Shown piece after piece: positions 26,386-33,546 of a DNA stretch of 64,000 nucleotides (the first letter of the stretch is position 1; every line of letters begins with the position of its first letter). The notes below the pieces were generated by a model that saw only the letters and a list, made by a program, of their open reading frames with translations, made no database searches and was not told the DNA's origin. A program made the translations under genes and the position numbers. The DNA is from an uncultured Clostridia bacterium (lineage in GTDB: Bacteria > Bacillota > Clostridia > TANB77 > CAG-465), in assembly GCA_944388585.1 (NCBI GenBank), contig CALXJI010000003.1:79360-143359 (forward strand), written 5' to 3'.

Positions 26386-26549
26386 TGTGGTTTTCCTCCT
26401 TTACTGTTAATAAAGTTGCAATATCAGTACTTGTCAAAAAAAGTTTTGAATTTAACATCACTTCAAAATTTTTTAGTGACTCATACTAAAAACTACGTCA
26501 TAATTATAGCATAATAGTTTACATATTTCAACAGTTTTATGTAAATTTT

Positions 26550-27464
26550 TTATTTATATAACTCTGTAGATAAATATCTTTCTCCAGAGTCTGGCAATAT
26601 AATTACAACTTTTTTATTATTTTTAGCATAATGTTTAGCTGCATCAATAACAGAACCAGAAGAAATTCCTACTAATAATCCCTCTTTTTGTGCCACTTCT
26701 CGTGAAGATTGGTAAGCTTCGTCAGTTGTAACTGTATATACCTCATCTATTATATTTCTATCTAATATCTCTGGTATAAAATTAGCTCCTATTCCTTGTA
26801 TTCCGTGTTGTCCAGCTATACCCTTAGAAATCAATGGAGATTCAGCAGGCTCTACTGCCACTATTTTTATATCTTTATTTTTTTCTTTTAAATATTTTGC
26901 AATTCCAGTCAAAGTACCTCCAGTTCCTACAGATGCGATAAATACATCTATATTTCCATCCATATCTTCCCAAATTTCAGGTCCTGTTGTCTTATAATGA
27001 GCATTAACGTTTGCAGGATTTGTAAATTGCCCAGCAATAATAGCTCCAGGAGTTTGTTTAAGTATTTCGTCCGCTTTATCTAAAGAACCTTGCATTCCAA
27101 GTGCTGCATCAGTTAAAACGACCTCTGCGCCATATGCCTTTAATACTTTAATTCTCTCTTCACTCATACTTGAAGGCATTGTTAAAATAACTTTATATCC
27201 CTTTAATCTTGCAATAAAAGCAAGACCAATTCCTGTATTACCACTTGTAGGTTCTATTATTGTTGCTCCAGGTTTTAAAATTCCTTTTCTTTCAGCATCT
27301 TCTATAATTTCAAGTGCTGCTCTATCTTTTACACTTCCAGCAGGATTATACTTTTCTAGTTTTGCATAAATTTCTCCTGTTAAATTATTTGTTTTTTCCA
27401 TATTATTAAGTCTTAGCATTGGTGTATTTCCAACCAATTCAATTAAATTTTGATATACCTTCAT
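26550..27464 (-). CDS. cysK: cysteine synthase A (O-acetylserine sulfhydrylase)
   Basis: 304 aa; NPAGSVKDRAAL PLP-lysine motif; GNTGIGLA; 12 nt downstream of cysE. Confidence 0.9.
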   Translation of the reverse strand: MKVYQNLIELVGNTPMLRLNNMEKTNNLTGEIYAKLEKYNPAGSVKDRAALEIIEDAERKGILKPGATIIEPTSGNTGIGLAFIARLKGYKVILTMPSSMSEERIKVLKAYGAEVVLTDAALGMQGSLDKADEILKQTPGAIIAGQFTNPANVNAHYKTTGPEIWEDMDGNIDVFIASVGTGGTLTGIAKYLKEKNKDIKIVAVEPAESPLISKGIAGQHGIQGIGANFIPEILDRNIIDEVYTVTTDEAYQSSREVAQKEGLLVGISSGSVIDAAKHYAKNNKKVVIILPDSGERYLSTELYK

Positions 27465-27476
27465 TTTTATTCCTCC

Positions 27477-28076
27477 TTATCTTTTTATTATTCTATCTGT
27501 AGGTACACCTACAGCAGTCACATCATCTTCAAGATTTTTAAGCACTACTGCACCAGCTCCTATTTTTACATTATTTCCTATTGTTATTGGTCCTAAAATC
27601 TTTGCACCTGCACCTATTAGAACATTATTTCCAATAGTTGGATGTCTTTTAACCTTATCTTTACCAGTTCCTCCAAGAGTAACTTGATGATAAATTGTAC
27701 AATCATCTCCTACAATAGCTGTTTCACCTATAACAACTCCCATACCATGATCTATAAATAATCTTTTACCAATTTTTGCACCAGGATGAATTTCTATACC
27801 TGTAAAAAATCTTCCAAGTTGTGAAACCAATCTAGCTAAAAAGAATCTATTATGTCTATATAGAAAATTACCTATTCTATAATATATTAATATATGAAAT
27901 CCTTGATATAGTAAAATAACTTCTAATAAACTTTTAACTGCTGGATCTTTTTCTTTTATATTTTTAGCATCTAAATATAATTGTTTTATTCCATAAAAGA
28001 AACCTTTTTCTTTTATTTTTAATTCCTTTTTTTCATTAGTAGATACTTTTATTAAACTCACTTTATTAATTTCCAT
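27477..28076 (-). CDS. cysE: serine O-acetyltransferase
   Basis: 199 aa; hexapeptide-repeat left-handed beta-helix ([28 protein letters not shown]); SD GAAGGAG before the ATG. Confidence 0.85.
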
Positions 28077-28104
28077 TACTATTACTCCTTCATTACTAAA
28101 AATA

Positions 28105-28141
28105 ACTACAAAAAAACTATGTAGTTGCCTACATAGTTCAT
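28105..28141 (-). terminator. leader (attenuator) terminator upstream of cysE
   Basis: Minus strand: AACTATGTAG-GCAA-CTACATAGTT followed by TTTTTTTG, 28 nt before the cysE SD. Confidence 0.7.
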
Positions 28142-28217
28142 ATATTTAATTAAAAAATATATTCTCTTTACTGTAGGCACGAAATTAGACACTCATACCT
28201 ACATTCAGATACGAGCG

Positions 28218-28262
28218 TTATTTCATACAACAACAGCAGTTTACGAATATATTTTTTTTCAT
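28218..28262 (-). CDS. candidate Cys leader peptide MKKNIFVNCCCCMK
   Basis: ATG 7 nt after SD AAAGGAGAG; codons TGC TGT TGT TGT in a row; lies between a consensus promoter and the leader terminator. Confidence 0.55.
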   Translation of the reverse strand: MKKNIFVNCCCCMK

Positions 28263-28303
28263 ATAAATTCTCTCCTTTTCTATATTATGCACTATTATAT
28301 AAT

Positions 28304-28332
28304 ATAATAAAAAAAAAGTCAATATTTTATTT
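28304..28332 (-). promoter_or_regulatory. sigma-A-type promoter for the cysE-cysK leader
   Basis: Minus strand: TTGACT - 17 nt - TATAAT, both consensus hexamers. Confidence 0.65.
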
Positions 28333-28350
28333 ATTGTTATTATAAAATTC

Positions 28351-28384
28351 AATAAAAACTAGGGGAGAATTAATTCTCCCCTAG
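28351..28384 (-). terminator. GC-rich intrinsic terminator of the CyuA-like gene
   Basis: CTAGGGGAGAAT/TAATTCTCCCCTAG perfect palindrome followed on the minus strand by TTTTTATT. Confidence 0.75.
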
Positions 28385-28412
28385 CCGACTACTTGATTTA
28401 CTGATTACGGTC

Positions 28413-29717
28413 TCATCTTACGATGATGTCCAAGATGCTCTTGTCCATGACCACAGCCGAGTCTTTCTCAATTTTTGCGTAATTCTGAACAGTCTGTTTG
28501 ATGTCGGAACTTACGATGCCAACGTCGTCTGTAATGCACCCCTTGCCACTAAGTGCAAGATCAGCCGCATACATTCCGGCGGAGACACACGCACACACCT
28601 TCATTGCACAGGTGCTTTTTGCACCGTCGCAAAACATACCAGACACAGTACCAAGCATATTCTGAATCGCATATTCTGCCTGCTTATAATCACCGCCAAG
28701 AAGATATACGATACCAGTAGTTGCTCCAGTACTTGCGATGACAGCTCCGCACAAATGAGAAAGAACATTAAGTTCTTTCTTAATGTACATTGCCGTCAAG
28801 TCAGCTACTGCCACAGCACGAAGCATCTTTTCTTCAGAAGCTCCGATTTCTTTTGCCACCTGTACAACAGGCAACGTGGTAGTAAGGCCCTGATTTCCGC
28901 TTCCAGTGCACGCCATTACAGCTAACGGTGCTCCACCCATTCTTGCATCAATTGCAGAAGTGGTCGTAGAGATAACCCTGGAGAAGATTGTATCTTCACC
29001 GAAAGGCTGAGCCTTTCCTACATTAAGTCCGTAGTTTGTAACTTTACCGTGCTCACTAATTGCAGTATTGAGTTCCACAGCTTTTTTGAAGATAGAGAGG
29101 TCATCAGTGGTATTTGCATACTCAAAGATTTCCTTCATGGTAATTTCTTCATACTCAGCTTTGCTGTCAGTGGTGCTGTCAGCTTCGCCTTCACTCATCT
29201 TAGAGTGAATAACTTCACCGTTCCGTTCGATGAGAACAACATTTGTGTGCTCATCTTCGATTACGACCCTCGCCATGTTGCAACAACAACAGCAACAACA
29301 GCTCTTCTTCGAAGAATCTTCCTTGCCATAAGCAGTGACCTGGATAAAAAGAGATTTCGGCGAATCGGTAATCTTCACCGACACATTATCCTTGGAAAAT
29401 TCATAGGCATAATCCTGATCCTCTTTTGCAACATTGCCAAGAAGTTCAAAACCATCCTCAGACTTTCCAAACAGGCCACCCTCTGCAGTCACGAATGCTG
29501 CGCCAACGTAGTTGGAGCCAGGTACACCAGCATCCATTGCATTCTTAGCCATATTAGGGCTAAGTTCAACTTCAAATCTGGTAGGCTCTTCGCCCAGTGC
29601 TTCTTTTGCAATAGCACTTGCATATGCAATTGCAATAGGCTCTGTGCATCCAGTGGATACTAACAAATACTTGTCCATCAGTTTCTGAATTTTGTGTTTC
29701 TGTTTCGTGGTAAGCAT
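28413..29717 (-). CDS. L-cysteine desulfidase-like (CyuA/YhaM, UPF0597, serine-dehydratase-like) with internal 7-Cys run
   Basis: STGCTEPIAIAYASAIA N-terminal signature of UPF0597/CyuA; ~435 aa from the ATG at 29717 (SD AAAGGAGGAAAAATT; the longer ORF to 29798 is unlikely); SCCCCCCCN insert; GC ~48%. Confidence 0.6.
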   Translation of the reverse strand: MLTTKQKHKIQKLMDKYLLVSTGCTEPIAIAYASAIAKEALGEEPTRFEVELSPNMAKNAMDAGVPGSNYVGAAFVTAEGGLFGKSEDGFELLGNVAKEDQDYAYEFSKDNVSVKITDSPKSLFIQVTAYGKEDSSKKSCCCCCCCNMARVVIEDEHTNVVLIERNGEVIHSKMSEGEADSTTDSKAEYEEITMKEIFEYANTTDDLSIFKKAVELNTAISEHGKVTNYGLNVGKAQPFGEDTIFSRVISTTTSAIDARMGGAPLAVMACTGSGNQGLTTTLPVVQVAKEIGASEEKMLRAVAVADLTAMYIKKELNVLSHLCGAVIASTGATTGIVYLLGGDYKQAEYAIQNMLGTVSGMFCDGAKSTCAMKVCACVSAGMYAADLALSGKGCITDDVGIVSSDIKQTVQNYAKIEKDSAVVMDKSILDIIVR

Positions 29718-29855
29718 AATTTTTCCTCCTTTACTACGAAAAACCATAACCAATTGCAACAAGTAATCAAACACCATGTGGATGTAATTACACCACATTT
29801 AAATATGTTTAATTACAAGAAGAATTTTATCACTATTACATTTATATGTCAACAC

Positions 29856-29876
29856 CAAAACGCAAATAATTTGCGT
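29856..29876. promoter_or_regulatory. perfect 10-1-10 palindrome AAACGCAAAT-A-ATTTGCGTTT in divergent intergenic region (candidate operator)
   Basis: Exact inverted repeat centred between the divergent CyuA-like gene and the 30006 gene; no upstream gene for which it could be a terminator. Confidence 0.4.
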
Positions 29877-30005
29877 TTTTGCTATTTTTATTCTTTTTTA
29901 GATACTTTTTTTTACATTTCTATTGATTTTTAAGCTTTTTTATGTTATATTAAAGTCCTGTAGCAGTTGGCTATTCTTATCTTATTAGAAAGGAAGGTTA
30001 TTGTC

Positions 30006-30425
30006 ATGTTATCAATTATGAACGTAGAACTCATTCAATTTCAACAAGCACGGTTCATGTCCGAAGATAATCATCGCTACCTCGAAAAGGGAAAGAAAAT
30101 AAAAAAACATCTTTCTCTTTCGGAAGATGAAGAAGACACTTTGAAAGCTCTTGAGGGCAAAGACCTCACTGCAAGATCATTGATTCTCTATCAAAAGCTT
30201 CTCATTAAAAAAGCACTCTACGAAGGTGTTAACAATGGGAGATTTCTGTATGAGATTGATTTTGGTGTTCCTCTTGAAGAAGAGGTAAAGCAGTGGTCAA
30301 GAACTTTCGGATATGCATTAAGTGCTAAATCTAACACAATTTGGGTTACTGGTCGTGACGGCTGGCAGTATGAGTCAATTGACTCTCCACCCCCTTCTAA
30401 AACGGAATTCACCTTGCTTTGGTGA
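30006..30425 (+). CDS. hypothetical protein (139 aa), GC-rich, divergent from the CyuA-like gene
   Basis: SD GAAAGGAAGG before the ATG at 30006 (ORF track starts at 29967); no known motif. Confidence 0.4.
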   Translation: MLSIMNVELIQFQQARFMSEDNHRYLEKGKKIKKHLSLSEDEEDTLKALEGKDLTARSLILYQKLLIKKALYEGVNNGRFLYEIDFGVPLEEEVKQWSRTFGYALSAKSNTIWVTGRDGWQYESIDSPPPSKTEFTLLW

Positions 30426-30463
30426 AATATTCCACAAAAAATGAATGCTTAGACAATCATTTC

Positions 30464-30492
30464 CACCGAGTAAAATCGGTGGTTTTTATTTA
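30464..30492 (+). terminator. intrinsic terminator
   Basis: CCACCGA-gtaaaa-TCGGTGG followed by TTTTTATTT. Confidence 0.75.
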
Positions 30493-30660
30493 TTCACTCT
30501 AATTCAATTTTTTTAATTACATTACATATTCTACTACTCTATATTATCATCTTACACAAATATTTATTAATATTATTTAATTTTAACTTTTATCTATTTA
30601 TATTATTATCATAAAAACGAATTAAAAACATATATTATAATATATATTTTAAAAAGGAGA

Positions 30661-32778: not shown

Positions 32779-33546
32779 TTATTCATTAGTGATATAAGTA
32801 TCTATATACTCTTGTAATGATTCGAACTCTCCAGTTTCATTATTTTTTATCTCCAATGAAGATATATCTAGATTCTGAACAGCAACCCTTGATTTATTTT
32901 GTTGTATATTTAGTTCTCTCAAACCATTTCCAAGTCCTATTACCTCGTATTGCTCATCTGAATTTTCTTTTAAATATACTAAATAGCTCTTTCCAGATTC
33001 TATTTCTATATCACCAGATATCAATACATTAATGTAAGTATTATCTAAATCAATACTTGTATTATTCTCAGAACGTAGGTATTCACGCTTTAAATTAGCT
33101 GCATCCGGTTGAGTTTCTTCCCAATCTGACATTTTCATTATTCCACCTGGTTTTGTATACTCTATAACTTGTCCTTGTTCTAATTCTCCTTTTAAAACAG
33201 TATTAATAAGCATTTTACCATCTGTCATTCCAATTAAACTTCCTTCAGGATCAGCCCCATCTAATGAAATAACAGTTGCAAGTGCAATACAATCAGCATC
33301 TTCACCTAACTTATTTGGTGTAAATTCTTCTACTAAGCAAAGCTGTGTAACACAATCATATGTTGAATTTTTAATTTCATCTGTAATATAACTTGTTATC
33401 TCATATGTCTGCTCCTTAATATTTGAATTTTCTTTAACCTCACCATATAGATTGTCATTTTTTAATTTATATCCTACTAAAACAGTAAAATATAATAGAA
33501 CAATAACACTTGCCACAACAACAACAATCTTTTTTTTCATAAACAT
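32779..33546 (-). CDS. membrane-anchored extracytoplasmic protein (signal-anchor N-terminus)
   Basis: MFMKKKIVVVVASVIVLLYFTVLVGY signal anchor; remainder hydrophilic, acidic; sits upstream of the ECF sigma gene. Confidence 0.35.
   Translation of the reverse strand: MFMKKKIVVVVASVIVLLYFTVLVGYKLKNDNLYGEVKENSNIKEQTYEITSYITDEIKNSTYDCVTQLCLVEEFTPNKLGEDADCIALATVISLDGADPEGSLIGMTDGKMLINTVLKGELEQGQVIEYTKPGGIMKMSDWEETQPDAANLKREYLRSENNTSIDLDNTYINVLISGDIEIESGKSYLVYLKENSDEQYEVIGLGNGLRELNIQQNKSRVAVQNLDISSLEIKNNETGEFESLQEYIDTYITNE

Follow-up and report, generated by a model that had tools for sequence, protein, structure and literature searches.

A predicted cysteine-sensing leader-peptide attenuator upstream of cysE-cysK in an uncultured Clostridia bacterium

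The cysteine genes cysE and cysK of an uncultured Clostridia bacterium (assembly GCA_944388585.1) are preceded by a short leader that we read, from its sequence and from modelling, as a cysteine-sensing leader-peptide transcription attenuator, with a probability of roughly 0.78. The leader lies within a stretch of 64,000 nucleotides (nt) (contig CALXJI010000003.1, positions 79,360 to 143,359), referred to here as the window, and all coordinates below are counted from the first base of that window. Conservation, covariation and ribosome-constrained folding give good support to the conclusion that a leader attenuator stands here in place of the T-box or S-box normally found, and the same three lines of computational evidence favour the view taken in a first-pass annotation of the window that this is an attenuator of the trp/his/leu type keyed to cysteine. 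That annotation also raised the possibility of an undescribed regulatory class, which does not hold, since Cys leaders had precedents: a prediction for Actinobacteria (2005), validation in mycobacteria (2020) and a further prediction, for the region upstream of cysS in Rhodobacterales (2021). What the window contains appears to be a known kind of attenuator, represented by a new sequence family and in a new taxon, the gut Clostridia (Firmicutes); it is not a new regulatory class or principle.

Results

Organization of the leader

The leader and the genes that it precedes lie on the minus strand, and consist of the following parts.

28294..28322, minus strand: sigma-70-type promoter, with -35 box TTGACT (28322-28317), 17-nt spacer and -10 box TATAAT (28299-28294); 11/12 matches
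28270..28278, minus strand: Shine-Dalgarno (SD) sequence of the leader, AAAGGAGAG, 7 nt 5' of the AUG
28218..28262, minus strand: leader open reading frame (ORF), MKKNIFVNCCCCMK, 14 codons plus stop
28227..28238, minus strand: Cys run UGC UGU UGU UGU, codons 9-12 of 14, the proposed site at which charged tRNA-Cys is sensed
28257-28245, minus strand: segment A, codons 2-6, in the 5' half of the leader ORF; partner of segment E
28206..28218, minus strand: segment B, ACGCUCGUAUCUG, beginning with the last base of the stop codon; 13 bp to segment C
28189..28205, minus strand: segment C, AUGUAGGUAUGAGUGU, common partner of B and D, almost invariant in the family
28169..28185, minus strand: segment D, AUUUCGUGCCUACAGUA, with alternative partners in the leader ORF, in C, or in the terminator 5' arm and loop
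28164-28152, minus strand: segment E, GAAUAUAUUUUUU, partner of the ORF 5' half in the untranslated state
28162-28155 and 28147-28140, minus strand: part of E, AUAUAUUU, and E', AAAUAUAU, which pair inside the antiterminator
28179-28172 with 28133-28126, minus strand: antiterminator D:F5', UGCCUACA with UGUAGGCA, using half of the terminator 5' arm and the loop
28110..28139, minus strand: intrinsic terminator F5':F3', with an 11-bp stem (5' arm 28139-28129, loop GCAA 28128-28125, 3' arm 28124-28114) and a U7 tract (28116-28110)
27477..28076, minus strand: cysE, serine O-acetyltransferase in its long 199-aa form, the first regulated gene; ATG at 28076; NCBIfam TIGR01172, E 2e-70
26550..27464, minus strand: cysK, cysteine synthase A, 12 nt past cysE; NCBIfam TIGR01139, E 2e-127

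The promoter, the SD sequence (28278-28270) and the 14-codon ORF (28262-28218) with its TGC TGT TGT TGT run are all as the first-pass annotation described them, and the NCBIfam matches confirm that cysE and cysK lie downstream. The promoter is among the three best promoter-like sites within 4 kb, and transcription probably starts near 28287, ~25 nt before the leader ORF. The terminator that had been pointed out is also present (AACTATGTAG-GCAA-CTACATAGTT, 28138-28115, followed by T7), but its U tract ends 18 nt, and not 28 nt as had been given, upstream of the cysE SD (GAAGGAG, 28091-28085). The gene upstream of the leader ends in a strong terminator of its own (28386-28357), so that the leader is a separate transcription unit; a terminator search found none between cysE and cysK, which are presumably co-transcribed.

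Three repeated segments, UGUAGG (28204-28199), CCUACAG (28177-28171) and CUAUGUAGG (28136-28128), are able to pair alternatively, as had been noticed in the sequence, and the alternative helices were folded. The C:D helix joins UGUAGGUAUGAG with UUCGUGCCUACA over 12 bp, and the antiterminator D:F5' and the terminator F5':F3' are mutually exclusive. The four relay helices have closely similar energies (B:C -14.9, C:D -15.6, D:F5' antiterminator -14.5 and terminator -13.5 kcal/mol), and such near-isoenergetic helices fit what is expected of a switch. In the unconstrained minimum free energy (MFE) fold, segment A pairs with E (28257-28245 with 28164-28152), the Cys codons UGCUGU (28238-28233) pair with ACAGUA (28174-28169) in D, and GUAUGAAAU (28228-28220) pairs with AUUUCGUGC (28185-28177), likewise in D; the B:C hairpin (28218-28206 with 28201-28189) is nested inside this pairing of the ORF, and the terminator forms separately.

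Conservation and covariation

The leader stands upstream of the long form of cysE in every lineage that has upstream sequence, the proper comparison set being the long-form CysE orthologues, whose contigs were looked up for that sequence. The loci are listed here with their leader peptides, each of which is followed by a stop codon.

L161-169: same species as the window; CysE identical; leader peptide identical to that of the window
L170-173: CysE 96% identical; leader peptide MIKNIFVNCCCCMK
L174: CysE 74% identical, cysE-cysS operon; leader peptide MKKFIFTNCCCMI
L186-189: same 90% CysE cluster as L174 (P0006); leader peptide MKNVIFTNCCCMI
L175: CysE 74% identical; leader peptide MKKNIFVNYCCMK
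L177: CysE 72% identical; leader peptide MKKIILANCCCMK

A search of the cysE leaders of other genomes, as proposed in the first-pass annotation, thus finds the Cys-run ORF and terminator in three further lineages besides the strain with 96% identical CysE. A profile search returned no long-form CysE beyond P0001, P0006, P0022, P0029 and P0037, and the P0029 contig, with 53 nt of upstream sequence, is uninformative for the leader.

The leader alignment (A2) comprises five distinct sequences from four lineages, with close variants besides. All five members keep an SD sequence with a GGAG or GAGG core, and the relatives have 4, 3, 3 and 2 Cys codons at the position matching the run in the window. 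The frame of the leader ORF is kept in all relatives at a length of 13-14 codons, the sole indel being exactly one Cys codon, and the distance between the last Cys codon and the start of B, taken up by two codons and the stop, is invariant. Promoter boxes equivalent to those of the window (TTGACA-17-TATAAT or TATAAA) are found in L170, L174 and L177.

All named helices are kept across the alignment, 92-97% of cells being paired; a shift of the 3' partners by 1-3 columns brings this down to 19-56%. Unguided, RNAalifold recovers the pairing of the ORF with D and E, the B:C hairpin and the terminator, with five pairs maintained despite two-sided changes. In B:C, 95% of cells are paired, and one pair has changed on both sides and four on one side; the terminator, present in all five members as an 11-bp stem with U7, has 98% of cells paired and includes one compensatory change from A-U to G-C. 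The closing pair of A:E is C-G, U-A or A-U across the family, and its 5' base is the third position of ORF codon 6, where one change swaps Phe for Leu; covariation that alters an amino acid in this way points to constraint on the RNA and not on the peptide. In C:D one pair has gone from A-U to G-C and several from G-U to A-U, with all the changes in D, and C is presumably invariant because it has two partners. The antiterminator core is 100% paired in the five sequences, and its outer pair changes from G-C to A-U (alignment columns 106:169). The covarying 3' base of this pair lies in the terminator loop, so that the change is explained by antiterminator pairing alone and not by the terminator.

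Ribosome-constrained folding and a proposed mechanism

The five leaders were folded under a mask that began 12 nt 5' of the P-site codon and reached +13 or +15 downstream of it, both as the full leader and as a transcript cut just before the terminator 3' arm. With the leader ORF masked in this manner, as had been suggested at first pass, the choice of helix in the MFE folds shifts with the position of the footprint in the five sequences. With either the first or the last Cys codon in the A site, the cut transcript keeps the B:C hairpin (11-13 bp), and for 19 of 20 such conditions the thermodynamic prediction includes a D:F5' helix of 7-11 bp; for L174 a Cys-codon footprint gives the antiterminator in the full-length RNA as well. 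When the A site is on the stop codon, B is covered, C:D forms over 10-12 bp, D:F5' is predicted to be absent in 9 of 10 conditions, and every full-length fold has the terminator, which also forms in folds without a ribosome. A wider mask, extending to +18 from the P site, overlapped part of B and gave the terminator in every fold, and it was then replaced by the +13/+15 limits.

We propose a ribosome-mediated transcription attenuator keyed to cysteine that would control cysE-cysK and probably, via read-through, cysS. The specific circuit that the alignment and the folds suggest, and to which we give somewhat better than even odds, is a relay through five segments past the ORF by way of near-isoenergetic helices, namely B:C, C:D, D:F5' (the antiterminator) and F5':F3' (the terminator). 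When cysteine is scarce, the lead ribosome would stall with a Cys codon in its A site and with its front edge at most at the stop codon. B would then be free to form B:C, and the ribosome would cover the ORF bases that otherwise pair with D, leaving D unpaired as the terminator 5' arm emerges; D:F5' would form, and RNA polymerase would enter cysE. When cysteine is plentiful, the ribosome would reach the UAA and cover or melt 9-11 nt of B, freeing C to form C:D; the terminator 5' arm would be left free, the terminator would form, and transcription would stop at the U7 tract. In the absence of translation the ORF would pair with D and E, and B:C and the terminator would form, giving termination by default. 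The elements that we infer are stalling of the ribosome, pausing and coupling of RNA polymerase, trapping of the antiterminator by kinetics, and a response to cysteine.

This relay would also resolve a caveat of the first-pass annotation, in which the distance between the Cys codons and the first of the repeated segments ('segment 1') left the pairing logic unclear. The added hairpin B:C, between the Cys codons and the UGUAGG segment, would relay the position of the ribosome: one stalled at the last Cys codon would extend just as far as the stop codon, which borders B, and a terminating one would invade B, so that the Cys codons need not touch 'segment 1'.

Significance against chance and known RNA families

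Dinucleotide-preserving shuffles give an expectation of 0.07 four-TGY-codon runs per 64-kb window, and the 214-nt leader folds at -59.4 kcal/mol as against -35.5 +/- 3.8 for its shuffles (z = -6.3). On both strands of the ~0.85 Mb of loci that were fetched, ORFs of <=45 codons preceded by an SD sequence and with a run of no fewer than three Cys codons occur only directly upstream of cysE. No further copies of the leader were found in the window or the 189 loci by nhmmer with the family profile, and a motif scan of viral contigs found none. We note that in this T-rich genome TGY repeats also come from runs of Val codons (GTT). One 'CCCC' candidate, TGTTGTTGTTGT at 33515-33526 on the minus strand, was rejected as a spurious, out-of-frame Cys run; the real gene there, 32779-33546, reads KKKIVVVVA (VVVV).

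The first-pass observation that a T-box core is lacking is borne out by Rfam 15, in which T-box, SAM and other plausible families give no match at E <= 10 over 27000-30500; the only matches at E <= 10 in that interval are chance matches to the terminator of the upstream gene. At the Rfam gathering threshold the whole window yields two tRNAs and nothing else, with no T-box and no SAM / S-box (RF00162 and relatives), and no T-box (RF00230) is found in the 20 nearest cysE loci.

A second leader design upstream of cysE

A different Cys-run leader, here called type 2, is present in a Clostridia metagenome-assembled genome (GCA_028701115.1) and related contigs (L091, L178-185), in which CysE is ~71% identical to that of the window and the gene order is cysK, leader, cysE. 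Its positions are as follows.

L091: 458-652
L178: about 2310-2503; also present in L179-L185

The type-2 leader has a consensus promoter, an SD sequence and a 25-codon ORF (MNKIINNAPRCCCCCCNNVNLNIKI or MNKIMNNAPCCCCCCCNNVNLIIKI, then a stop codon) with 6-7 consecutive Cys codons, and 56-57 nt separate the end of this ORF from the cysE ATG. Its peptide and that of the window are unrelated save for the Cys run. Immediately 5' of the run, CACCU(C) pairs with the cysE SD GAGGUG (L091, L178), and this anti-SD would be hidden by a ribosome that had stalled at the beginning of the Cys run, which suggests that the type-2 leader is a translational attenuator like the mycobacterial one discussed below.

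Weighing the alternatives

Several observations weigh against the cysteine-sensing attenuator proposed for the window. The leader is missing from 159 of 160 other cysE loci (80 from GTDB and 80 from metagenomes), the exception, L091, having the type-2 design; in the 80 GTDB-species loci (CysE <=81% identical) no Cys-run leader lies within 900 nt upstream of cysE. Among the loci without the leader are those of the best-scoring CysE homologues, 77-84% identical; these have the short 171-174-aa form of the protein and other gene contexts, and are the wrong comparison set. L175 has just two Cys codons. The shuffle controls for covariation are only suggestive, with 2-22 of 500 shuffles equalling the observed scores, because the family is as small as it is. 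The footprint limits of +13 and +15 from the P site are those generally given for E. coli ribosomes. Finally, at equilibrium the full-length RNAs of the window, L175 and L177 give the terminator in most Cys-stall conditions, and antitermination in these members must therefore depend on co-transcriptional kinetic trapping.

This preference for the terminator at equilibrium, seen in several members, would also suit a Cys-codon leader that acts mainly on translation or mRNA stability, for example by masking the cysE SD, and not through the choice between terminator and antiterminator. Such a leader would have counterparts in the validated mycobacterial case, which is translational (10.1101/834739), and in the type-2 leader with its pairing of anti-SD CACCU to the cysE SD GAGGUG, and in the MFE fold of the window a weak A/U-rich helix does lie over the cysE SD region (28106-28098 with 28089-28081). 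We nevertheless consider it unlikely, given that all five members have a canonical terminator, which includes a compensatory change and overlaps a covarying alternative helix, and that in L174, L175 and L177 this terminator is ~85-110 nt upstream of the cysE start, a distance at which the switch cannot reach the SD. An attenuator controlled by a protein or ligand, in which the short ORF would be incidental or would serve only for translation-coupled unfolding and the Cys codons would not be the sensor, is quite improbable as well. The near-invariant cores of C, D and F5' are of a kind often seen in binding sites, and the two Cys codons retained in L175 fit this idea too, but the invariance of C is accounted for by its two partners, and the Cys run, the frame, the SD sequence and the exact Cys-to-B spacing are found in every lineage, with an indel of one Cys codon as the sole length change. 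Short Cys-run ORFs in the 0.85 Mb are moreover confined to positions upstream of cysE, the unrelated type-2 leader before cysE shares the Cys run alone, and no Rfam family matches.

The leader peptide is fairly conserved (M-K-K-x-I-F/L-x-N-C-C-C-M-K), as a functional Cys-rich micropeptide would be, whether metal-binding, redox-active or a precursor for modification, that is co-transcribed with cysE beyond an ordinary partial terminator. Most of its codons, however, lie in conserved helices, and substitutions in them, one of which changes an amino acid, are matched in the non-coding partner strand; the Cys count ranges from 2 to 4, L186 changes KKF to KNV with the helices untouched, the type-2 peptide is unrelated outside the Cys run, and no modification or export genes are adjacent, all of which makes a micropeptide very unlikely. 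As to a chance grouping of promoter-like hexamers, a short ORF and a terminator in an AT-rich spacer, promoter-like sites are frequent in DNA of 26% G+C (25 found vs 17.7 expected), but the rarity of the Cys run (0.07 expected per window), the fold z-score of -6.3 and above all the conservation of the whole unit, with covariation, across lineages whose CysE proteins are 72-74% identical leave this a negligible probability, and for practical purposes the comparative data refute it.

Neighbouring genes and other cysE loci

The plus strand of the window has 26% G+C and a base composition that is markedly asymmetric between strands (T 39.6%, A 34.1%, C 15.9%, G 10.3%), and the genes around the locus are almost all on the minus strand. 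NCBIfam places cysS downstream of cysE and cysK. The cysK-cysS spacer (26386-26549, minus strand) has a good promoter of its own, TTGAAA-17-TATAAT with an extended TG (26531-26503), and a ~110-nt 5' untranslated region (UTR) containing two A/U-rich hairpins, with a U run after the second; the spacer contains neither a T-box nor a Cys-run ORF.

Directly upstream of the leader is a gene for an L-cysteine desulfidase-family protein (28413-29717, minus strand; PF03313, UPF0597) that includes an in-frame run of seven Cys codons at 29280-29300 on the minus strand (…KKSCCCCCCCNMAR…). The run has 7, 6 or 5 codons depending on the strain. A Cys-rich loop (CCxCCCC, CxxCC, CCC) stands at the matching place in homologues that share at least 50% identity, and in homologues <=41% identical the loop is wholly absent. 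The run could be an expanded structural, Fe-S or persulfide loop, or could act as a translational sensor of cysteine for an enzyme that degrades it. It is conceivable, and in our judgement rather doubtful, that in these uncultured gut Clostridia Cys-codon runs alone make up a small cysteine 'ribulon', in which the two leader designs would induce synthesis when tRNA-Cys charging falls (transcriptionally in the window, by SD masking in L091 and L178) and the desulfidase run would act with the opposite sign, the enzyme being completed only when charged tRNA-Cys is abundant. If true, this would be amino-acid sensing by codon runs in a leader and in a structural gene at one locus. Adjoining the desulfidase gene is a divergent ORF (29967-30425, plus strand; 139-152 aa) that is present in all same-species contigs and has no Pfam or NCBIfam match; the species itself is represented in at least 175 blocks of the assembly collection.

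Among the other cysE loci, a relaxed screen (at least two Cys codons, ATG start, <=45 codons) added only the doubtful L004, L032 and L045. The last of these, from Thermosyntropha lipolytica DSM 11003, has a short ORF, MGCSCLGDGCC followed by a stop, with 4 Cys in 11 codons, that ends ~33 nt upstream of cysE; it may be a further independent Cys-sensing leader, or may be due to chance. In L001 (2690-2960), the locus of the top-scoring GTDB CysE homologue (short form, 81%), cysE lies behind a ~640-nt spacer in which a long inverted repeat (…CAGCCCAAAAGCATAAATATATAATATT… / …AATATTATATATTTATGCTTTTGGGCTG…) precedes a terminator-like hairpin; this spacer has no Rfam match, and could be a different leader or the scar of a mobile element.

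Discussion

In Firmicutes, cysteine genes and cysS are the textbook domain of T-boxes, S-boxes and CymR, and cysE-cysS of Bacillus subtilis carries a Cys T-box leader. Cys T-boxes are the norm in Firmicutes and Clostridia, as in the ubiG operon of C. acetobutylicum (PMC2566862). The leader in the window has in common with them the genes, the position, tRNA-Cys charging as the signal and the output through a terminator and antiterminator. In contrast, a T-box binds tRNA directly, through the specifier codon of Stem I and the T-box sequence, and independently of translation; the window leader has none of these features, and its ~175 nt are wholly accounted for by the ORF and the relay helices.

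The plan of the leader is that of the enterobacterial trpL, hisL, leuL, thrL and pheL attenuators, represented in Rfam by Trp_leader, His_leader and others, with a constitutive promoter, an SD-driven short ORF containing tandem codons for the amino acid of the pathway itself, mutually exclusive antiterminator and terminator hairpins, and default termination when untranslated. The his attenuator of Salmonella is a multi-hairpin relay, in which A:B, C:D and E:F are set against B:C and D:E. The window leader resembles it in being a multi-hairpin relay as well, and compared with the trp/his logic would have one extra relay step. Unlike the enterobacterial attenuators it concerns Cys and belongs to Clostridia, has no sequence or covariance-model similarity to them (no Rfam match), and would operate such that the stalled ribosome spares the first relay hairpin, B:C, and the terminating ribosome melts it.

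Seliverstov et al. 2005 (PMC1262725) predicted that cys operons of Actinobacteria have upstream leader peptides with Cys runs, and Canestrari et al. 2020 (bioRxiv 10.1101/834739; Mol Microbiol 2020) showed experimentally that leaderless polycysteine short ORFs of Mycobacterium smegmatis are cysteine-responsive attenuators, acting via accessibility of the ribosome-binding site (RBS). The members of this mycobacterial 'Cys ribulon' sense charged tRNA-Cys and de-repress operons of cysteine metabolism, and share with the window leader a short ORF with at least two consecutive Cys codons upstream of cysteine-related genes. They differ in being leaderless, with no SD sequence and no intrinsic terminator, and in the case studied the target is translation initiation of the downstream gene. 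The window leader is not leaderless: its -10 box ends at 28294 and its AUG is at 28262 with a strong SD sequence between them, giving a 5' UTR of ~25 nt, and it has a terminator and antiterminator. Its family is without the RBS-sequestering duplex of the mycobacterial leaders, the switch ending in a terminator (an SD-sequestering feature is found in the type-2 leader of L091 and L178), and the two have no sequence relationship. The uORFC-8-2 motif of Brewer et al. 2021 (PMC8632094), which contains two Cys codons and a terminator and lies upstream of cysS in Rhodobacterales, is likewise a predicted ribosome-mediated transcription attenuator in which tandem Cys codons and a terminator with a U run precede a gene of cysteine use. 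Compared by description, uORFC-8-2 belongs to Alphaproteobacteria and to cysS only, and has a two-stem structure with the Cys codons at positions 14-15 of a longer peptide inside the first stem, whereas the window family, which precedes cysE-cysK (in L174, cysE-cysS), places its 2-4 Cys codons within positions 8-12 and appears to form a five-segment relay.

In Firmicutes the first 'regular' leader peptide, for His, was reported by Naville and Gautheret 2010, and leader-peptide attenuators there include the His leader of the Bacillus hisS/hisZ paralogues (PMC2965389) and the Leu-rich attenuator peptide of S. aureus ilv-leu (PMC5794164). The window leader would be like these in being a 'regular' leader peptide that replaces a T-box, for another amino acid and with an unrelated sequence. 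No Cys leader peptide in Firmicutes or Clostridia was found in the searchable literature, from which most subscription journals are missing, so that this absence is not proof. Leader-peptide systems in Gram-positive bacteria are thought to arise repeatedly and locally, and the presence of two unrelated designs at cysE supports such repeated, local evolution of leader-peptide attenuators.

The leader adds to annotation a short ORF that had not been annotated and an RNA family without an Rfam model. It offers a compact, putatively cysteine-responsive part of ~175 nt whose geometry, with the stop codon right against the first hairpin of the relay, is testable. The idea of a 'Cys ribulon', drawn from mycobacteria, would extend to a further phylum, and the attenuator at cysE suggests that a clade of low-G+C uncultured gut Clostridia has swapped the direct sensing of tRNA for sensing by the ribosome.

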